The position numbers and the translations under genes were made by a program. The notes under the pieces were generated by a model, which saw only the letters and a program-made list of their open reading frames with translations, had not been told where the DNA came from and did no database searches. Below are positions 1,134-11,096 of a DNA stretch of 11,096 nt, in pieces; positions within the stretch are counted from its first letter, which is position 1; each line of letters starts with the position of its first letter. This DNA comes from Planctomycetota bacterium (lineage in GTDB: Bacteria; Planctomycetota; Planctomycetia; Pirellulales; Lacipirellulaceae): the NCBI GenBank assembly GCA_039190745.1, contig JBCCXZ010000094.1:1-11096 (forward strand), in the 5' to 3' direction.

Positions 1134-3362
1134 TCAAGCTTCTGCGGGGGCAGCGGCTTCGGCCTTGAGTTCTTCCTGCGCGTCCTTCGCCATGAGATAG
1201 GCCTTGATGCTTTGCATAATGAGCCTGCCGCAGTTAGCGATCTCCGCGCTACGCCGAGATCGGTTCTTCAATGCCCTGATCTCGACGAGGATGCGGGAGT
1301 TGGGGTACTCGCCCGCGGCCAGCCCGATCCCGCTGGTGCGGGTCACGCGGATCTCCTTGAGCTGCATCTCCACGCCGAAGGTGATCGGCCGGACGTCGCT
1401 CGTGGAATGGAGCGAACTCGTAGAGACCTCCATGCGGACGGTGTTGTCCTTGATCGAAACAATCCTGGCCTTCTGGTCGGAAACAAAGCCCCGCAGTTTT
1501 TCCACAGCGATCTCGACGGGGACCGGAGAGATCAAGTCGGCCGACATCGAGTTCTTGGCCCGGGGCTTGAGGAACGACCACCAACGCTTCCCGCCTGCTT
1601 CCTCAGTCATGCCATTCCCCAACTGAACGACCTGATTCCTGCCCTGCTCTTTGGCCATCAACAAGGCCCTGTCTGAACGCCGCAGCATGGTCTCGGGTGT
1701 GTCGCCCGGCTGCACCTCGGTGACCCCAAAGCTCGCGGTGATCTGCTTGCCGCCCAGGCAGTCGTGTTCGATCTCGGACAGCCGAACCCGCATGTCTTCC
1801 GCTCGTCGGGCGGCGTCCGCGGTGCCGCAGTCCGCGCAGAGCACGGCGAATTCCTCGCCCCCGTACCTGGCGACCAAGTCTCCGGACCGGCAGTTCGCCT
1901 TCAGCAGTTTGGCGAGCGTGATGATCGCCTCGTCTCCGGCTTGGTGGCCGAAGGTGTCGTTGATCGACTTGAAGCGGTCGATGTCCGTCATGATCAAGCT
2001 GCAGGGCAGGCGAGACTGCTGGTGCGACTCGATAAACAAAGCCAGCATCCGGTCGAACTCGCCGCGATTGGCGACCTTCGTCATCGGGTCTTGCGTGACT
2101 TCGGTGTTCAGTTGGTCGCACTGCTGTTCGAGCGAGGCCAGTTGCTGCAGGTCTTCCAAGAGCAGCGTCGCCCCGAGCGGCGCCCCGTCCTTGCCCGGCA
2201 CTGGCGTGACCGTGAGCTGGATCTCCGTGTCATTGCCGGGACGTTCTCTAATGATGACCTTCTGCGACAGCCGCGAACCGCTCTCGATCGAGCGGCGCAG
2301 CGGGCAGGCGCTCTCAGTGATGGGGCGGCGGAGCTCGTTCTTCATCCCGAGCAACTCGGGCAGGAACGCCTTGCCAACCGCGGCGTCGCGGGGGATGCCC
2401 GTCAGCCGCTCCGCCCCGACGCTCCACATCGTGATCCGAGATTCGTTGTCGACAAAGACCACCCCGTCGCGGAGCGAATCAACCAGTACCTGGTCGAAGG
2501 GCGAGACGTCGCAGTCTTTGGGGGCTTCTTCAGGCAGGGCATTCGTGGCTGTCTGCCAAGGCAGAGTTTCGAGCCGCACCGCCATCTGGCCTAGCCAGTC
2601 GGAAGCCACCGTGCGGTAGAGCGATTCGTGGCCCTTGCTGTTGAGCTCCGTAAATTGCTTGACCAACGCGGGGTCGAACTGAGTTCCGGCGAACTCGAAG
2701 AGCTCCGCGAGTGCCCGCTCGCGGGGCCGAGCCGGGCGGTAGACCTGGTCGGTGACCATCGCGTCGAAGGCGTCCGCGATCGCGATCATCCGCGATTCCA
2801 GCGGGATGTCTTGACCCGCGAGGCTGCCCGGCTCTCCGTCGTAATGGTCTAGGCAATGCCGCACCGCTCTGAGCAAGCGTTCGGAACCACAGCACGCCGC
2901 GATGATCTGCACGCCGGCGGCCTGCTGGGCACGGACGAGCGACTTCTCTTCAGCGGTCAGGCGCCCCGGCTTCAGCAGTACGCGGTCCGGGACACCGATC
3001 TTCCCGATGTCGTGTAGCAGCGCTGCGAGTTCTAAGACATCCCGCGTTTCCGCGTCGAGTTCTGCGAATTGCGCCCACGCGCTGCAGCTGAGTGCAACGC
3101 GGCAGCAGTGTGCTGCGGTGTGCGGATGTTTGAAGTGGATCGCCGAGAACAGGGCCCCTCCCAGTCCCAGTCGGGCCTGCGCGATGCTGACCTCATGCCG
3201 CGATTGCTCAAGGGGCTCGCTGGCCGAGAGTCCGCTGGCTGACGCGGCCTGTTCGAGTGAACTCAGCAATGCGGGGACGCGCTGCGGGGTCGGCTCAGGG
3301 GTGGCGGGCGCAGAGTGATCCAACGCTCCAGTTGGCGCGTTGCTGGCAATGGCGTCGTCCAT
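1134..3362 (-). CDS. Diguanylate cyclase: degenerate HD-GYP, PAS, GGDEF and an unknown C-terminal domain (742 aa)
   Basis: HD-GYP-like motifs: LLHDIGKIGVPD.VLLKPGRLT.EE, IPLESRMIAIADAFDAM, AGTQFDP. PAS: DSLRDGVVFVDNESRITMWSVGAERLTG. GGDEF: DPMTKVANR, DIDRFKSINDTFGHQAGD, RSGDLVARYGGEEF, ITASFGV, AKEQGRNQV. Confidence 0.95.
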   Translation of the reverse strand: MDDAIASNAPTGALDHSAPATPEPTPQRVPALLSSLEQAASASGLSASEPLEQSRHEVSIAQARLGLGGALFSAIHFKHPHTAAHCCRVALSCSAWAQFAELDAETRDVLELAALLHDIGKIGVPDRVLLKPGRLTAEEKSLVRAQQAAGVQIIAACCGSERLLRAVRHCLDHYDGEPGSLAGQDIPLESRMIAIADAFDAMVTDQVYRPARPRERALAELFEFAGTQFDPALVKQFTELNSKGHESLYRTVASDWLGQMAVRLETLPWQTATNALPEEAPKDCDVSPFDQVLVDSLRDGVVFVDNESRITMWSVGAERLTGIPRDAAVGKAFLPELLGMKNELRRPITESACPLRRSIESGSRLSQKVIIRERPGNDTEIQLTVTPVPGKDGAPLGATLLLEDLQQLASLEQQCDQLNTEVTQDPMTKVANRGEFDRMLALFIESHQQSRLPCSLIMTDIDRFKSINDTFGHQAGDEAIITLAKLLKANCRSGDLVARYGGEEFAVLCADCGTADAARRAEDMRVRLSEIEHDCLGGKQITASFGVTEVQPGDTPETMLRRSDRALLMAKEQGRNQVVQLGNGMTEEAGGKRWWSFLKPRAKNSMSADLISPVPVEIAVEKLRGFVSDQKARIVSIKDNTVRMEVSTSSLHSTSDVRPITFGVEMQLKEIRVTRTSGIGLAAGEYPNSRILVEIRALKNRSRRSAEIANCGRLIMQSIKAYLMAKDAQEELKAEAAAPAEA

Positions 3363-3758: not shown

Positions 3759-4835
3759 ATGAACCGCAACGACGCACGTTTGGGGCGTAGAAGGCGCGTC
3801 CTTCAGGAAGAGATCCGAGTGGCGACCGAATCCGCGATGGCGATCCCCGCGCAGTCCGATCAGCAGATCGAGCCCGGAGACACGCCGCGTTACGGCGTGC
3901 GTGCGAACATCGAGAACCACCCTCAGGTGACCGACTTCGTGCCGAGAAGGTACCGTGTCATCGGGGCCTTTGTGGCTGTGCCTTTGGCAATCGGTGCGGT
4001 ATTCGAGTGGGGCCGTTATGAATCGGGTACGCTGGCCCAACTCCTCCAGATGCCGAAGCTCGAGCCCCAACTCAACTCGGTGTTTGCCAGACTGTCGGAC
4101 TGGACTTCCGCGGTCGTGATGCTCCTCGCTGCGGTGGCGGCGATTGTTGTGTTCTCGCTCCGTCGCTACCGGGTGGACGACTACCGCGGCCGCTACCGAA
4201 CCTGGCGGCTAGCGGCGCTGGTTAGTTTTCTTGCCAGCGCGAACGCTGTAGGAAAAGTCCACACTTTGGTAGCCGACGCGGGTTCCACAGCCCTGGGGCA
4301 GTCGTACCTGCCTGGGGGGGCGGGGTGGTGGCTCTTCCCGGCGACTCTGGCGGCCGGTTGGGTGCTGTTCCGCATCGCGTTCGACGCAGCCGAGTGCCGC
4401 TCGGCTTTTGCGGCCTTCGCATTATCCGGGGTCCTGCTCGCCGGCGCCGCCGCCTGCACCGTAGGTTGGGTCCCGTCCACAGCTTTGTTGGTTGAAGTGA
4501 GTGTCGCCGCGCCGATCCTCCTGCTAGGCGGCTACGTCATGGCGATGGCAGGGTGCCTCTTCTACGCCCGGTATGTGGTTTTGGACGTTCAAGGCCTCAT
4601 CGAGCACCAGTACGTGAATGTCTCAACGGCCACTACAGTAGAGCCAGAGGAGAACACTGCTTACCCGATCCAAACCGAGCCGATAGCGGCAAGGACGCCC
4701 AAGAACGAGGCCCCTTCGGCGTGGGTGGACGGCACAGAGCCCGAGGAGCAAGACTCCGGCTCGCGGCCGCGGAAGCTATCGAAAGCAGAGAAGCGTCGGC
4801 TGCGGAAGCGGCAGGCGAATCAACGGGCCGCGTAA
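3759..4835 (+). CDS. Hypothetical polytopic membrane protein (358 aa, roughly 7 TM helices)
   Basis: Long ORF filling the gap between divergent and downstream genes. It has multiple hydrophobic stretches, a charged loop RRYRVDDYRGRYRTW, and a basic tail RKLSKAEKRRLRKRQ. No family recognised. Confidence 0.85.
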   Translation: MNRNDARLGRRRRVLQEEIRVATESAMAIPAQSDQQIEPGDTPRYGVRANIENHPQVTDFVPRRYRVIGAFVAVPLAIGAVFEWGRYESGTLAQLLQMPKLEPQLNSVFARLSDWTSAVVMLLAAVAAIVVFSLRRYRVDDYRGRYRTWRLAALVSFLASANAVGKVHTLVADAGSTALGQSYLPGGAGWWLFPATLAAGWVLFRIAFDAAECRSAFAAFALSGVLLAGAAACTVGWVPSTALLVEVSVAAPILLLGGYVMAMAGCLFYARYVVLDVQGLIEHQYVNVSTATTVEPEENTAYPIQTEPIAARTPKNEAPSAWVDGTEPEEQDSGSRPRKLSKAEKRRLRKRQANQRAA

Positions 4836-4957: not shown

Positions 4958-6535
4958 ATGACCATTCGTACCCGATTCGCCCCCAGCCCCACCGGCTACC
5001 TGCACATCGGCGGCGTCCGCACCGCGTTGTTCAACTGGCTCTTCACCCGGTCCCAGGGCGGCAGCTTCATCCTGCGTATCGACGACACCGACCAGCAACG
5101 GAATGTCGACGAAGCGCTTGCCCCGATCCTCCGCGGCTTCCGATGGTTGGGGATCGACTGGGACGAGGGGCCCGAGGTCGGAGGAGACGCGGGGCCGTAC
5201 TTCCAGTCGCAACGGTCTTCGCTTTACAGCGCCGCCGCGGAGCAACTGCTCGCTAGCGGGGCGGCCTACAGGGATTTCGCCAAACCGGAGGAGATCCAGC
5301 AAGAGCGAGAGGCCGCTCAGGCGGCCGGGGAGCCCTTCGTTTACAGCCGCAAGTGGGCGGCGGAAAACGAATCCGACAAGGCCCGTTTCCGTGCCGAAGG
5401 CCGTGAGTCTGTCGTCCGACTCAAGATGCCGCGGGAAGGCGAACTCGTCCTCGACGACATCATCCGCGGCGAGGTCCGGTTCCAGTGGGCCCGGGAGCAG
5501 GACCACGTGATCCAGCGGGCGGACGGCTCGTGCCTCTACCACCTCGCGTCGGTCGTCGACGACCACGAGATGCAGATCTCGCACGTCATCCGTGCCGAAG
5601 AACACCTCTCCAATACGCCGCGGCAAGTGTTTATCGCCCAGCAGCTGGGTTACCACTTGCCGCAGTTTGCTCATCTGCCGTACGTCGCGGAGCCGGGGAG
5701 CAAGAACAAGCTCAGCAAACGCAAACTCGAAAAGTACCTGAAGAACCGCGAATTCGCCGCACTACGCGACCACGGCCAGTCGGTCGCCGACCGCACAGGG
5801 CTGGAGACCTCGCCCGAGACCTTCAACCCGGTGATCGTGGACTTCTACGAGCAGACGGGGTTCCTCCCACACGCGGTCATCAACTACCTGCTGCTGCTCG
5901 GCTGGTCGTTGGACGACAAGACAGAGGACTTCACTCTCGAGGAGATGCTGCAGCACTTCTCGCTCGAGCGCGTCAACAAAGCGCCGGCTAGCTTCGACGC
6001 CCAGCGGCTGATGTCGTTCCAAGACCGGGCGATGCAACGACTGCCGATGAAGCAGAAAGTGGCTTTCGTCCTGGCGTTTTTGCAGAGCGCAGGCTTCGTG
6101 CCCGAGCCGCCGCCCTGCGAGACGGCGCCGTACCTCACCAAGATCCTGGAGGCGGCGGGCGACCGAGTAAAGATCGGCGGCGACATCCTCGACTACGCCG
6201 AGTTCTACCAACCCGACGAGGAGTTCTCGTACGACGAGAAGGCGTTCAACAAACGGCTGAAGAAGCCCGAGCGTGCAGCAGAGTTGCTTGGCGCCTACCG
6301 CGACGAGCTTTCCAAGGTTGAGTTGTTTTAGGCGGAGCCGCTCGATCAACAACTGCACGCGTTCGTTGAGCGACAGGGGATCAAGATCGGCGACATCATC
6401 CACGCCATCCGAGTGGCGGTCACCGGCAAGGCGGTCGGGTTCGGCGTGTTCGAGACGCTAGAGATACTCGGCCGCGACCGTTGCTTGGCGCGTATCGACC
6501 GGGCACTCAGCCTTGTAGCGACTGCCGATGGCTAG
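4958..6535 (+). CDS. gltX: Glutamate--tRNA ligase, interrupted by an in-frame TAG at 6329-6331 (codon 458 of 525 sense positions)
   Basis: [16 protein letters not shown] (HIGH), [52 protein letters not shown] (KMSKS). After the TAG the frame continues [67 protein letters not shown], the typical GluRS C-terminal anticodon-binding helical domain. Confidence 0.95.
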
Positions 6536-9456
6536 CCGGCCTCGTTCCGGCGGTTGTTGGCTCCACTGTCGCCTGGCTTCTCACCCTCGGTCTTGCCGCC
6601 CTTCTTCGTGTCCGCCGCGCCCGGCGGCTTGCCGCCTGGCCACGGTTGGGCCAGGGCCTCCGCGACCGCGGTCTTCAACTCAGACGCGGTTACACCGCCG
6701 CGGACCTTGTGCAGCCGAACAACCGTGTTCGGTTTGGCAGCCTCGTCCAGCCGGGTGATGATCTCCCGCACACTGTCCCAGATCTCTTCTTGGGCCGAGA
6801 CGATCAGCGTGTTCGAGATCGTGTCTACGCCAACAGACAACGCCCCCTCGAAAGTAACCTTGACAGCCTTGGGTTTCTTCTGTGTGTCGTCATCGGGACC
6901 CGACCTACGGAAGTAATAGGTAGTCTCCCTGCCTGACTTCTTACTGTCCTTGCCCTGGAATTCCTTATCCTTCGAGCTCAGCAAGTCTCGGTAGACTTCC
7001 TTCAGCGCGTTCGCCACGTCCGTTGCGCTGGAGTACTTCAGCTTGATCGCCTCGGTGCGACGGGTGGCGATGTCTTCCTCACCCGGCGCCCGATCGTAGA
7101 TCTCGATCAATTGCGAAACCACCCGGAGTTGCGACTCGCTAGCGTTCTGCACCACGATCGTGTTGGTGTCGTAATCGTAGATAAACCGCAGTCTCGGCGG
7201 CGCCGAGAGCGTAGCCGGCCCTTGCTTGGCCCGCTTGTTGCCCTCGTACTCGCCCCAGAGGTTGTAGACCGATTCCTTCTGGCCCTTGAGTTCTTCTTCG
7301 AAGTACTCCTCTAGGTTCAGCACAACAAACGCAGCGCTCGAATAACGGAGGTGGAAGACTTCGAACTCTGGTTGCGGTGCCGCGATCTCCTCGAGCAGCA
7401 TCTCCAGTTCGTCTAGCGCCGCGGTATCCTCGCTCCGCAGCACCATCCGGCCGTCGGGAGTGAGGATGACGTCAATCGGCGGTGACTCTTCCGCAGGATC
7501 GGAGTCGGTCGCGTGTTCGTCTGCGACCGCGGCGAACCGGAAAGGGCCGCCCGCACGCTTCCCCATTGTGACCGTGTCTTCGGCGGGCGAATCTCGTTCT
7601 TCACGCACTGGTTCGTTCGATTTCTCCTGAGCAGGCTTCTCGGACTCGCCCGGCATCACCCGCACACGGAGTCGGTTCTTCCCGCCCCACGCAGATTCAA
7701 GCTGCCTGAGCAGACGCTCGTTGTCCGCGGCGGACCGTGCCCCCAGCACCCGCATCTTGCTCGGGTTCGCCGAGCCGCCGCCCGGAGTTTCGCCCAGCTG
7801 GGTCAGCAGATCTCGCACCTGCTCGATCTCGGTGTCGTTCGCCCACACCAGCAGGCGGTTCCGTTCGAGGTCGGCAAGGGCCTTGAAGCCAGTCTGCTCT
7901 TTCTTCTCATCCTGCCTAGGACGACCGAAGTAGAAGAAACTCCTCCGAGAGGGCTGCTCTTCCTTCTTCTCTTCCCCCACAAGCAAGGCGTTGACCGTGC
8001 CCGCCACTTGGTCGGCTGCGAGCCGACGCAACCAAAAGACGGTGATCCGCCTACCCGGGCTGTCGAGTTGCACGATCATCTGGTCAATCTTGCGGTGGTC
8101 TTCCTGGGTGGCGTAGGCGTAGATCGTGTTGTTGTTAGCGTCGCTCTGAAGCTGTGTCCGCGGATCGAGCCGGGCGATTTCCTTGAGCGCCGTCACCACG
8201 GCCTCGACGCTCGCTGTGATGGTCTTGTGCGGTTGCATCGATAAGGAACCCGAAGCAAGGCCGCCGCCCGGAGCGGCCGACACCTCGGAGTCGTCGTCCG
8301 GCCGGTCGAACAGCCGGATCGTCCGCTCGATCGTCGGCATAAGATCTCGTGGCGCGTTAACCAGGATGTTGTTCCGACGCCGGTTGACTGCGATGTGCAC
8401 CGCGGGGCCGTCTTTCTTCAGCAGGTTCGAGACGTCTTTCCCCTTCTGCTGCATCTGGGAGTAGAGCTTCAGCCGCGCCTGCTCCAGTTGCAGCTCCATC
8501 GGGTTCTTCCGCGAAGCGGGGTCGAGGCCCAGCACGATCATCACCTGGTCGGCGATGTACTCCGCGCCTCGGTGGTACAACTCGAACTCGCGGGGTTTGG
8601 GGTAAGCCGCCGCAGCGGACTGCTCGGAGTAGAAGAGGTCCCGCACGTCCCGTAGGTTGGCGACCGCGTCGATCACCAGGAGCCGGTTGGTCGCCAGGAG
8701 CGGGACCACCTTTGCGTGCGGGCTGAGCAGCACCTTAACGTCTTCCTTCGCCTTTTCGATGTCGAGGCCGGGCGGCAGCTGGAAGCGCACCCGCACAAAG
8801 TCGTGCGGCGGGTAGTCCTCCAAGTCGTCGGCTTCGACCCGGGCGACCAGGCTTGGGTCGAGCTTGCTGATCTGCACGACAGAGAGCACTTCGCCCCGGC
8901 TGACCATCGTGAACCCTCGCGCGAGCAGGTGACGGTTCAGCAGGTCTCGTGTCTCCGGGATGGTGTACTTGCGCTGCGTCGTGAGGTTCAAGTAGTCCGG
9001 CGGCAACTCTTGCCAATCAAAGCTGTAGCCCGCCACGTCTGCGAACCACTGCAACACGTCGGCCCAAGGCTGGCCTCGGAAGCTGAACTGCACCAGCCCG
9101 CGTTCGTCTGGAGCCGCCTTGAGTTCATCAGGGTTGGGAGGGGTTGGCGGTTTCTCGGGACGTTTGGTGACGGGAGCCTCTTCCTCTTTGTCCTCTTCCT
9201 CCTTCTCTTCTTTTGGTTTCTCCTCGTTCGCGGGCTGCTCCGTGGCCGGAGGAGGTTGGGGAGGCTCTCCCCTGCCGCGGCTACCCCGGCGACGCATCAT
9301 CTCCCTAACACGAGCCTGCTGCTCCGGCGGCAGCTGCTGGATCTGCTCCTCGGTCGGCTGTGCCGAGCACTCCACGCCGGTCGAGACAACGACTGTGACG
9401 AGAACCATCAAGGCGAGCAGCAATCGAATGATGCGAGAGACGTGGAGAACGATCAT
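6532..9456 (-). CDS. Exported secretin N-terminal (N0 plus NolW-like repeat) protein, GspD-related but lacking the secretin beta-barrel (974 aa)
   Basis: Signal peptide-like N-terminus (RIIRLLLALMVLVTVVVSTGVECSA|Q). N0-like segment VQFSFRGQPWADVLQWFA...LNL. Repeated L-x-[YH]-x-x-A...D-x-x-x-N-x-[LI]-[LIV]-V...[IL]-x-x-[LY]-D units, e.g. IKLKYSSATDVANALKEVY...VDTISNTLIVSAQEEIWDSVREIITRLD. Ends in a low-complexity tail. Confidence 0.85.
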   Translation of the reverse strand: MIVLHVSRIIRLLLALMVLVTVVVSTGVECSAQPTEEQIQQLPPEQQARVREMMRRRGSRGRGEPPQPPPATEQPANEEKPKEEKEEEDKEEEAPVTKRPEKPPTPPNPDELKAAPDERGLVQFSFRGQPWADVLQWFADVAGYSFDWQELPPDYLNLTTQRKYTIPETRDLLNRHLLARGFTMVSRGEVLSVVQISKLDPSLVARVEADDLEDYPPHDFVRVRFQLPPGLDIEKAKEDVKVLLSPHAKVVPLLATNRLLVIDAVANLRDVRDLFYSEQSAAAAYPKPREFELYHRGAEYIADQVMIVLGLDPASRKNPMELQLEQARLKLYSQMQQKGKDVSNLLKKDGPAVHIAVNRRRNNILVNAPRDLMPTIERTIRLFDRPDDDSEVSAAPGGGLASGSLSMQPHKTITASVEAVVTALKEIARLDPRTQLQSDANNNTIYAYATQEDHRKIDQMIVQLDSPGRRITVFWLRRLAADQVAGTVNALLVGEEKKEEQPSRRSFFYFGRPRQDEKKEQTGFKALADLERNRLLVWANDTEIEQVRDLLTQLGETPGGGSANPSKMRVLGARSAADNERLLRQLESAWGGKNRLRVRVMPGESEKPAQEKSNEPVREERDSPAEDTVTMGKRAGGPFRFAAVADEHATDSDPAEESPPIDVILTPDGRMVLRSEDTAALDELEMLLEEIAAPQPEFEVFHLRYSSAAFVVLNLEEYFEEELKGQKESVYNLWGEYEGNKRAKQGPATLSAPPRLRFIYDYDTNTIVVQNASESQLRVVSQLIEIYDRAPGEEDIATRRTEAIKLKYSSATDVANALKEVYRDLLSSKDKEFQGKDSKKSGRETTYYFRRSGPDDDTQKKPKAVKVTFEGALSVGVDTISNTLIVSAQEEIWDSVREIITRLDEAAKPNTVVRLHKVRGGVTASELKTAVAEALAQPWPGGKPPGAADTKKGGKTEGEKPGDSGANNRRNEAG

Positions 9457-9502
9457 CGCTTCCGTTCCGGGGGACGCGAGGGGGGCGGGAGGTTAATCCT
9501 CC

Positions 9503-9531
9503 ATTATACGCACGGCGGCCTCAGCGCAAAA
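9503..9531 (-). promoter_or_regulatory. Putative sigma70 promoter of the secretin-like gene
   Basis: Perfect TATAAT at 9508-9503 on the minus strand in GC-rich DNA. The -35 is imperfect: TTGCGC at 15 nt or TTTTGC at 17 nt spacing. It lies 46 nt upstream of the ATG. Confidence 0.55.
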
Positions 9532-9576
9532 ACAGATCGTCGTAAGCTCCGATCGATCACTCCCGAACGTGCGGCA

Positions 9577-10575
9577 TCAACCGACTTCCGCGAGCACGCA
9601 GTCGGTAAATTGCGTGGTAGTCGCCGAGCCGCCGAGATCCCCGGTCTTGGCCGAGCCGATTGCAACGACTTGCTTGATGGCTCGGTCGAGTCGGGCAGCG
9701 GCGTCCTGCTCGCCGAGAAACTGCAGCATCAGGACCGCGCTGAGCATCAGCGCCATCGGGTTGGCAAGCCCCCTGCCTGCGATGTCCGGCGCCGAGCCGT
9801 GCACTGCCTCAAATACCGCGATGCCCTCACCCACATTAGCACTCGGCGTGACCCCAAGACCGCCCACCAGGCCGCTGGCCAAGTCGGAGAGGATGTCGCC
9901 GAAGAGGTTTTCCATCACCAACACGTCGAACGCGTGCGGGTCGCTCACCATCCGCATCGCCGCGGCGTCGACGATGCAGTCGTCGAATTCAATGTCCGGG
10001 AACTCCTCAGCCACTTTCTGGCACGAACTCAGGAACAGCCCGTCGCTTAGCTTGAGGATGTTCGCCTTGTGGATGCACGTCACCCGCTTCCGGCTCTGCC
10101 GGCGTGCGGTCTCGAACGCGAACCGGGCGATTCTTTCTGAGGCTTTGGCCGTGATAATCCGGAGGCTCTCGACGACTCCCGGCACCACTTCGTGCTCTAG
10201 GCCGCTGTATAGTCCTTCTGTGTTCTCCCGGATGACGATCAGGTCGACGTCGCTGTAGCGAGACTCGATGCCCGCCATGGAGACCGCCGGGCGAAAATTC
10301 GCGAAGAGGCACAGCTTCTGCCGCAGGGCGACATTGACGCTCCGGAAGCCGGTTCCCTTGGGCGTTGCGGTCGGGCCCTTGAGCGTGGCGTCCGCCTGCT
10401 GGACGGCTTCTAGCGTTGCATCGGGCAGCGGGTTCCCCTGGTCTTCTAACGCGACCTGCCCCGCCGGCGCTTCGATCCATTCGACCGATACGCCGGTCTG
10501 CTCAACCGCTCTTTGAGCCGCGCCAGTGACCTCGGGGCCGATGCCGTCTCCAGGGATCAAGCAGATTCGGTGCAT
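9577..10575 (-). CDS. icd: Isocitrate dehydrogenase, short NAD+-type (isocitrate/isopropylmalate dehydrogenase family, 332 aa)
   Basis: LIPGDGIGPEV, KGPTATP, RSVNVALR (S-x-N isocitrate-type motif), IRENTEGLYSG, HKANILK, NLFGDILSDLASGLVGGLG, FEAVHGSAPDIAG (Asp-Ile indicates NAD preference). Confidence 0.85.
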   Translation of the reverse strand: MHRICLIPGDGIGPEVTGAAQRAVEQTGVSVEWIEAPAGQVALEDQGNPLPDATLEAVQQADATLKGPTATPKGTGFRSVNVALRQKLCLFANFRPAVSMAGIESRYSDVDLIVIRENTEGLYSGLEHEVVPGVVESLRIITAKASERIARFAFETARRQSRKRVTCIHKANILKLSDGLFLSSCQKVAEEFPDIEFDDCIVDAAAMRMVSDPHAFDVLVMENLFGDILSDLASGLVGGLGVTPSANVGEGIAVFEAVHGSAPDIAGRGLANPMALMLSAVLMLQFLGEQDAAARLDRAIKQVVAIGSAKTGDLGGSATTTQFTDCVLAEVG

Positions 10576-10611: not shown

Positions 10612-11016
10612 CTAGGGTCGAGCGGAAGCGGGGACAGTAAATGCCGCAGCGCCCCCGGCCGCGACGACCACGGCGAGGAACCCTTCGGCAGGCGGCGGTT
10701 CCTCGAAAACGGGAGCCAGGTAGGGAAAGACCCGTGGGACTTCCTCGGCGCAGCGGGCCATGGGAAAACCGTAAGCAAACAGCGCGGTCTCGTTAGCGGA
10801 CTGCTGGGCGATCGCGTCTTCGACCGCCTCAGCGCCTAGCCAGCCCCGAGCAATCTCGCCGCCGATGTCGTCCTCGCAGTCGAGCAGCAGCACCACGGTC
10901 GGCTCACCGTCGAGCGCCTCATCGTAGGCGGCGAACACTAAATCAAGGCTTTCCTCTAGGAACCGCTCCTGAGTTTCTTCCGGCGTCTCGGCGGGGCCCG
11001 GCGGCGGGGTGGTCAT
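10612..11016 (-). CDS. Acidic hypothetical protein (134 aa)
   Basis: ATG at 11016-11014 has GGAG upstream, so I prefer it to the track's 11073 start. Composition is protein-like. The stop lies 36 nt before the icd start on the same strand. Confidence 0.75.
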   Translation of the reverse strand: MTTPPPGPAETPEETQERFLEESLDLVFAAYDEALDGEPTVVLLLDCEDDIGGEIARGWLGAEAVEDAIAQQSANETALFAYGFPMARCAEEVPRVFPYLAPVFEEPPPAEGFLAVVVAAGGAAAFTVPASARP

Positions 11017-11096
11017 GCGGGGGCAACTCCAGGGGGGAGGTGCGAGCGTACCGGCGCGGTCTGGGCGGTACAAGCGGGTCCTGAAGCCGGGAGGTC

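Follow-up and report, generated by a model that had tools for sequence, protein, structure and literature searches.

The GspD secretins of type II secretion systems (T2SS), such as PulD, XcpQ and EpsD (PF21305, PF03958 and PF00263; TIGR02517), are among the closest described relatives of the planctomycete protein studied here. We call this protein P0001. It has 974 amino acids (aa) and is encoded by the open reading frame (ORF) at 9456-6532 on the minus strand of an 11,096-nucleotide stretch of DNA (contig JBCCXZ010000094.1), which as a whole is referred to below as the window. P0001 resembles GspD in its N0 fold and N-domains, in a collinear match to PulD and in having paralogues in T2SS operons. 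However, it has neither a barrel nor an S-domain, it carries seven and a half N-domains where GspD has three, and its gene lies far from the operon.

Secretins made of more than one polypeptide have been described in two other settings. In the rhizobial type III secretion system (T3SS), the barrel-less RhcC1 was proposed, in the available part of PMC3459982, to connect the platform in the inner membrane with a barrel protein, RhcC2, that lacks this N-terminal domain. According to the same text, those proteins are short and the two halves differ in origin, RhcC2 being derived from Tad. In contrast, P0001 is assigned here to the T2SS, the two halves go back to a single fused gene, and the point of breakage is within a domain. 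No T3SS core gene was found among the neighbours of P0001 (gltX, a dehydrogenase gene and an HD/GGDEF gene), the part of the genome that was searched for them. In the mitochondrial T2SS, the accessible text of PMC8134430 describes separate barrel and N-domain polypeptides (GspD and GspDN1-3), two of which (GspDN2/3) correspond to a single N-domain cut into an N-terminal and a C-terminal half; a two-hybrid assay indicated an interaction between GspD and GspDN1. These proteins are eukaryotic, tiny single-domain pieces, without N0 and without GspC, and the channel is shortened, not lengthened. P0001 has N0 and 7.5 domains, and shares with them only the half-domain break.

A long secretin channel is known from PilQ of Thermus thermophilus, in which six extra N-domain rings span a periplasm of ~70 nm with a channel of ~35 nm (PMC5745081 and PMC4463427, as far as available). 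PilQ is one polypeptide and serves a type IV pilus, whereas the system proposed here would have ~14 rings and two proteins; fused relatives of P0001 show 38-49 N-domain hits. The literature search, which left most subscription papers uncovered and excluded supplements, returned no description of this family or of split or giant planctomycete secretins. The terms 'secretin' and 'T2SS' are absent from a 2025 review of the phylum (PMC12673574), a preprint on giant genes mentions gspD solely as a neighbour (10.1101/2023.11.21.568195), and the available part of PMC8567305 treats prepilin-like proteins only. What is new here is a detached extension gene with a putative promoter of its own, fused and intermediate states within one class, a test of distribution, and repeat expansions.

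Domain architecture of P0001

P0001 matches PF03958 (Secretin_N) with an E value of 3.5e-43 and five stretches that pass. A barrel is found neither by Pfam (no PF00263 match at E<=1) nor in the AlphaFold model. Because it has no barrel and scores 117.6 bits against TIGR02517, below the curated cut-off of 351.35 bits, P0001 is not a GspD. The model, built from 114 sequences (mean pLDDT 76.4), consists of a hydrophobic N-terminal helix (residues 2-25), a disordered linker, an N0 domain (~118-196) and seven beta-alpha-beta-beta-alpha domains (217-907), with disordered insertions at 501-516, 605-656 and 832-868. It closes with a lone helix (924-936) behind an unpaired strand (pLDDT 51-63), then a disordered tail; the sequence itself ends in PWPGGKP and a short charged tail.

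All of the best Foldseek matches of the model are GspD-type secretins. The N0 domain superimposes on the N0 of enterotoxigenic Escherichia coli GspD (4jtm) with a Z score of 11.3 and a root-mean-square deviation (rmsd) of 1.5 Å over 78/81 residues, and residues 123-467 follow PulD 27-339 (N0-N3) collinearly (Z 14.3, rmsd 10.2 Å). PF21305 was detected in 8 of 16 N0N1 segments from the family of homologues described below. Judged by hydropathy only, a signal peptide is suggested: 109 of the 120 family members have a hydrophobic stretch at the N-terminus. The same measure gave no internal transmembrane-like stretch, and so no membrane anchor, in any of the 120, and three carry a lipobox pattern.

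P0001 is composed of N0, seven N-domains and half an N-domain, and is barrel-less. An earlier reading of the window from its letters alone, referred to here as the original prediction, had described a signal peptide, an N0-like domain, about seven NolW/KH-like repeats with charged insertions and the absence of a barrel domain; the N0, the repeats and the missing barrel are borne out by the profile scans and the model, and the hydropathy proxy gives a signal-peptide-like N-terminus. It had missed that the C-terminus is a conserved half N-domain. The features of the gene are listed below by window position.

6532..9456, minus strand: barrel-less secretin N-half gene (P0001, 974 aa); ORF, Pfam and model
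9361..9456, minus strand: predicted Sec signal peptide, residues 1-32; hydropathy
9106..9360, minus strand: short helices and disordered acidic/proline linker, residues 33-117; model
8869..9105, minus strand: N0 domain of the GspD type, residues 118-196; 4jtm superposition, PF21305 in family segments
8059..8808, minus strand: N1-N2-N3 domains, residues 217-466, a unit tandemly repeated in longer orthologues; model and orthologue comparison
7093..8055, minus strand: N4, N5 and N6 domains, N5 with a disordered insertion of ~55 aa (7483-7650); model
6736..7068, minus strand: N7 domain, best match to the last complete pre-junction domain of fused secretins; domain scores
6625..6732, minus strand: conserved half N-domain (beta1-alpha1) and PWPGGKP, proposed docking element; model, conservation and comparison with fused forms
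6535..6624, minus strand: disordered G/R/K-rich tail, matching the way in which the long linker begins in fused forms; model and junction comparison
9503..9508, minus strand: sigma-70-type -10 hexamer kept upstream of orthologues, with a weak -35, putative own promoter; motif inspection

Fused secretins and the break within a domain

The fused forms are long GspD frames of 1,899-3,269 aa from three other families of the class (f100, f104 and f101), of which 14 were fetched. All 14 contain, in one ORF, an N0, a first half like the P0001 family, a second half like GspD, and a barrel. In profile alignments, P0001 121-938 falls onto residues 118-766 of the fused form (P=100, E 1.8e-56), and residues 130-939 of a short GspD onto residues 945-1793. 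Each of the nine junctions inspected shows, after the last complete domain, first beta-alpha, next a G-rich linker of considerable length and then beta-beta-alpha, an order that reads as one N-domain with a loop inserted. P0001-type proteins stop after the first half-domain and the start of the loop, and GspD holds the second half. The last complete domain of the fused forms matches N7 best (score 119, against <=51 for N1-N6), and their second half-domain matches the GspD half best (65 against <=35).

At two loci (L109 and L110) the two halves are adjacent genes, and GspD opens with a signal peptide and the second half-domain; we read these loci as fission intermediates. Fused genes occupy the position of gspD, and in 6 of the 14 loci are followed by a lipoprotein gene that is shared with the T2SS operon on contig C41 of the P0001 genome. 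Judged by these alignments, P0001 is one half, the N-terminal one, of a T2SS secretin that has been split, and each of its domains has a homologue in the N-half of the fused forms.

A simple split at N0 was considered and dropped, as the GspDs of family f19 keep their N0 and the break was found mid-domain. Elsewhere in the phylum, we also observed giant one-gene secretins of 3,942-5,073 aa (P0246-P0360; L074-L079, that is, G128, G173, G159, G094, G187 and G073), each with N0, N-domain hits numbering 38-49 and a barrel.

A family with fixed ends and an elastic middle

The homologue search gave 517 matches among 8,000 candidates scored, of which 120 are listed (843-1,477 aa, median 987; 42-90% identity). 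PF03958 is present in all 120 listed homologues and PF00263 in none, so that orthologues continuing into a barrel number 0/120. The distant homologues that do bear a barrel are intact fused genes, which points to an origin by fission and not by recent truncation. The source names of the listed homologues are from Pirellulales, for example Lacipirellula parvula, with further records from Bythopirellula and Aeoliella. They are currently annotated as 'secretin N-terminal domain-containing protein' or mislabelled as GspD.

The C-terminal strand-helix and PWPGGKP are conserved like N7 (mean top-residue frequency 0.62 vs 0.62), with 0.35 beyond this point. All 18 other family members whose ends were inspected finish in the identical strand-helix and G/R-rich tail, and among more distant relatives, 920-2,040 aa long and with as many as 13 N-domain hits in Pfam, 12 of 12 are barrel-less. 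Three orthologues at the gltX-linked locus are 2,376, 2,637 and 3,416 aa long; in these, N1-N2-N3 occurs in ~7, 8 and 11 repeats, respectively, and N0 and N4-N7-tail are each present once. A variable middle with fixed ends fits spacer-like behaviour. Barrel-less N-halves carry from 7 to more than 30 domains, and the family has one to five hits per genome, of ~900 to 3,400 aa. Among 120 longer homologues listed, 111 have a barrel, and some are named as Phycisphaerae or Verrucomicrobia (Limisphaerales, Pedosphaera); the five best of these longer homologues are barrel-less expansions of P0001's clade.

A tree built from 55 N0N1 segments, all of which were retained (midpoint root for drawing only), places P0001's clade (100/100) on a long branch nested among barrel-less paralogues (80/77), and a class-wide group encloses these paralogues and the fused forms (98/95). 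We infer a direction from fusion to fission from the remnant linker and from the outgroup of intact GspDs. The genome of P0001 (G000) also encodes a 455-aa exported-looking protein (contig C19, 4156-5523, minus strand) with a coiled-coil acidic region, one Secretin_N and no barrel.

A candidate partner in the same genome

Three barrel secretins are encoded in the genome of P0001: a GspD on contig C41, a Tad/CpaC-type secretin on C58 and a pilM-linked secretin on C46. The C41 GspD (1,120 aa) is the last gene of a gspE-F-...-K-L-M-D operon, and its model has eight N-domains and a barrel, with no N0. An N0 profile made from the barrel-less family matches 119/120 family proteins and 0/120 relatives of C41 GspD, whereas a barrel profile matches 0/120 and 118/120, respectively. 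Profile-profile comparison of N0 with C41-type GspD gave P 0.1%. Because of this value and the absence of N0 profile matches among its relatives, we count C41 GspD as a barrel partner with no detectable N0. A fold search with the C41 GspD model matched no isolated N0 structure to its N-terminal domains, a result that is weak as a sign of absence.

C41 GspD holds the second half of the split domain, and also a first half of its own in cis, which is less conserved (0.41 vs 0.69). On the fused half, cis and trans halves score alike (22 vs 24-35 bits), so the sequence is silent on which half fills the site. Compared with the last domain plus half-domain of the extension, the GspD segment comprising Nb and the cis half scored 54 bits over 107 columns, against 40 for the next best, which weakly suggests that it may be a copy of them. 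A complex prediction with P0001 790-948 and C41 GspD 196-440 (cis half included, with alignments) scored 0.00; its controls were not folded, and it is counted neither way.

Other genes of these operons deserve mention. In systems of the split and the fused kind, gspD is immediately followed by a conserved lipoprotein-like gene (L068:3159-3935; G000 C41:17155-17904), which has no Pfam or NCBIfam match and is a candidate pilotin. The gene ahead of gspD (L080:4609-6507; L068:7429-8376) has a GspM/PilO-type look and a C-terminal beta-rich segment, which could be the equivalent of GspC HR and a candidate N0 partner; in L080 it additionally bears Ig/cadherin-like domains. The C46 secretin (L069:1192-4899; G000 C46:9188-12850) has 1,220 aa and long helical regions and lies downstream of a pilM-like gene; it is probably a type IV pilus secretin of atypical architecture.

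Co-occurrence and gene order

Phylogenetic profiling, which the original prediction had suggested as a check, was done with the N0N1 profile and the C41-type barrel profile on a single class-wide sample that comprised 201 genomes. The first is positive in 136 genomes and the second in 133, the second set lying inside the first: 133 genomes have both, 3 the family only, 0 GspD only and 65 neither. In the window's order, where the halves are separate genes, 44/50 have both and 6/50 neither. The 24 family-negative genomes checked all retain other secretins, and 23 of them are without GspK; Tad and pilus labels for secretins in other genomes were inferred from length and score. Therefore, the family tracks the T2SS and not Tad- or pilus-type secretins. 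GspK is present in two of the three discordant, family-only genomes, and the family occurs without T2SS markers in the class sample as one weak match only (G377).

Paralogues of P0001 often head T2SS operons; in L080-L083, and in L051 with L070, the barrel-less gene comes first, then gspE F G H I J K L M and finally gspD. At paralogue loci picked regardless of proximity, gspE lies within the fetched stretch in 8 of 15. At one locus (L107), three genes stand in tandem: one from P0001's clade, a paralogue and gspD. In five genomes (G000, G003, G006, G008 and G016) P0001's clade supplies the sole N0N1 protein found, and all five have a C41-type GspD. As a separate observation, one operon headed by a 1,732-aa barrel-less gene (L070:3222-7534, G017) has a gspD that is frameshifted at the start of the barrel, with regulatory genes inserted before gspD. 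The P0001 genome also holds, on many contigs, 41 matches to SBP_bac_10 (PF07596, the DUF1559 prepilin-like family), which are possible users of this T2SS.

Neighbourhood and putative promoter

The neighbours of P0001 are gltX (PF00749), a gene of the isocitrate/isopropylmalate dehydrogenase family (PF00180) and an HD/GGDEF gene. The original prediction had named gltX and icd as housekeeping neighbours; gltX stands, but 'icd' does not go beyond a family label, because the PF00180 gene scores under every NCBIfam cut-off. The gltX gene follows on the opposite strand, with no barrel remnant downstream of P0001, and is present in 34 of the 54 loci around its closest orthologues. The original prediction had also given the gene a promoter of its own, and a putative one can be described. 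A perfect -10 hexamer lies at 9508-9503 (minus strand), 47 nt upstream of the ATG, and a -10-like hexamer occurs within -300..+150 of the start in 35/42 orthologous loci, against 9/168 in-gene windows (a background that is not AT-matched). However, the -35 is weak, and a promoter scanner called no minus-strand site upstream of the gene, the weak -35 included. Contigs from one DNA run span 6000-9700 with one substitution and no indel; the run is probably from the source sample and so not independent. Among the sequencing runs, none of RNA was listed.

The gltX gene itself (4958-6534, plus strand) has an in-frame TAG at 6329-6331, ~67 codons ahead of the expected end, and its frame past the TAG runs on into the conserved anticodon-binding segment. 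Of the gltX frames in related loci, 27/29 reach this segment stop-free, and the DNA-run contig, probably from the source sample, carries the identical letters. The TAG may be a strain-level nonsense variant, a site of read-through or an assembly error. Three further genes of the window recur in the 54 related loci: a 153-aa acidic protein with no Pfam or NCBIfam match (10612-11073, minus strand; near the barrel-less gene in 22/54), a 358-aa membrane protein with no family match (3759-4835, plus strand; adjoining gltX in 28/54) and an HD-GYP-like, PAS and GGDEF signalling protein (1134-3362, minus strand; syntenic in 18/54).

Discussion

We propose that P0001 serves in the periplasm as a subunit that, as a polypeptide of its own, extends the GspD encoded on C41 of the same genome. 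We consider this likely because of the fused forms, the co-occurrence and the operon position of the paralogues. On the same grounds, we agree with the first option of the original prediction, in which the protein extends a true secretin whose gene lies in another part of the genome, and can put a name to that secretin.

The first part of our model concerns assembly. P0001 would be exported by the Sec pathway to the periplasm, which is enlarged in planctomycetes (PMC5394234, in the part available), and would oligomerize there into stacked rings; isolated XcpQ N-domains are reported to self-assemble into rings without a barrel (available text of PMC5646246). Its N0 would contact the inner-membrane platform; in the accessible part of PMC3169554, N0 binds GspC, and this binding is essential for secretion. 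At the other end, the C-terminal beta1-alpha1 of P0001 would pair in trans with beta2-beta3-alpha2 of GspD (~251-290). This pairing would re-form the domain where the ancestral gene broke and would displace the less conserved cis half of GspD. We are nearly evenly divided about this half-domain swap, leaning slightly towards doubt. The cis half may merely hold the place until P0001 displaces it, so that channels could be short or long; alternatively, P0001 may dock elsewhere, or have a role in assembly only.

The second part of the model concerns length. The outcome would be a conduit of ~14 rings and a barrel, roughly 60-70 nm if estimated at ~4 nm per ring, and its length could be altered by repetition of N1-N2-N3 or by another paralogue. 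It is possible, although we hold it as a tentative and rather doubtful generalization, that planctomycetes build adjustable-length T2SS channels from modular parts. The cis half of short GspDs would then be displaceable by extension tails, the tubes would have 14 to more than 40 rings, in keeping with a periplasm that is wide and of variable width, and the fused secretins of 1,900-5,000 aa would be the one-gene version.

Several observations weigh against the proposal that P0001 extends GspD. A structure search aligns C41 GspD 115-361 with XcpQ N0-N2 (Z 10-11, rmsd 4.4-5.8 Å), so that this GspD may contain a highly divergent substitute for N0. Ahead of the second half, C41 GspD carries a beta1-alpha1 in cis that is modelled confidently (204-233, pLDDT 84-88), as do 99% of its relatives, so it needs no trans half to complete the split domain; two further domains precede this cis half. 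The GspD of family f19 retains its own N0 (P 98.8%) although the barrel-less gene is kept, and supplying N0 therefore cannot be the sole reason for that gene. In 37 of the 133 genomes with both profiles (f100 and f104), both matches could come from a single fused gene, and the co-occurrence counts include kin and are not independent. P0001's clade is a long-branch paralogue in the tree (100/100), and gspD, E, F, G, K, L and M were found in 0/54 of its closest-orthologue loci, within <=10 kb. Last, a genome of the same genus (G001) has GspD and is without this gene. It is also without gltX and dehydrogenase orthologues, which points to a probable assembly gap, and we rejected it as a true exception.

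The alternative that survives best, though we consider it unlikely, is that P0001 is a T2SS accessory, such as a transient assembly scaffold, a chaperone or a tether on the GspD N-domains or the platform, and does not lengthen the channel. Where the domain is split, the GspDs of the C41 type and of f19 seem complete in themselves, the gene lies away from the operon with a putative promoter of its own, and the co-occurrence would fit any T2SS-dependent role. However, P0001 is collinear with the fused N-half down to the break point, and short GspDs without a cis half adjoin the barrel-less gene in L109 and L110. In addition, tandem growth to 3,416 aa with fixed ends suits a spacer and not a chaperone.

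Less probable still is that P0001's clade is a neofunctionalized paralogue and now forms the extension of a different secretin, either that of the Tad/CpaC type (C58) or that linked to pilM (C46), in the way that RhcC1 works with the Tad-derived RhcC2 (available part of PMC3459982). The long branch, the loss of the operon link, the presence of two other barrel secretins in the genome and a clade member near a gspE/pilB-like gene (L092) could be read in this way. This is countered by the family-negative genomes, which keep other secretins (24/24) and are without GspK (23/24), by the tandem with gspD in L107, and by the five genomes in which the clade is the sole N0N1 protein beside an N0-less GspD.

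The original prediction had also raised a second option, in which the protein is a tube or scaffold by itself within an uncharacterized envelope-spanning system. No secretion gene lies near the 54 close orthologues, and isolated N-domains can form rings (PMC5646246, as available), but in the class sample the family is always accompanied by T2SS markers bar the weak match in G377. P0001 has no membrane anchor, and its conserved neighbours are housekeeping genes, with no other co-localized candidate partner. As the family tracks T2SS GspD, we disfavour this idea and think it very improbable. A decaying truncation, to which the missing barrel of P0001 might point, is refuted by the conservation of 120 listed homologues of 42-90% identity that are all barrel-less with a matching end, and there is no barrel remnant before gltX on the other strand.

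If P0001 is an extension subunit of GspD, the two proteins offer a testable two-protein solution to how secretion machines span the enlarged periplasm of planctomycetes, one that occurs in most T2SS-bearing genomes of our class sample. The resulting conduits would be the longest secretin conduits so far proposed, and the joint, by domain complementation, could be usable for the designed extension of secretin channels. There would also be a phenotype to seek in genetically tractable planctomycetes. Finally, there may be a link from the proposal to the 41 prepilin-like matches that this genome contains, and to the membrane-pinning crateriform complexes described in the available part of PMC5394234.

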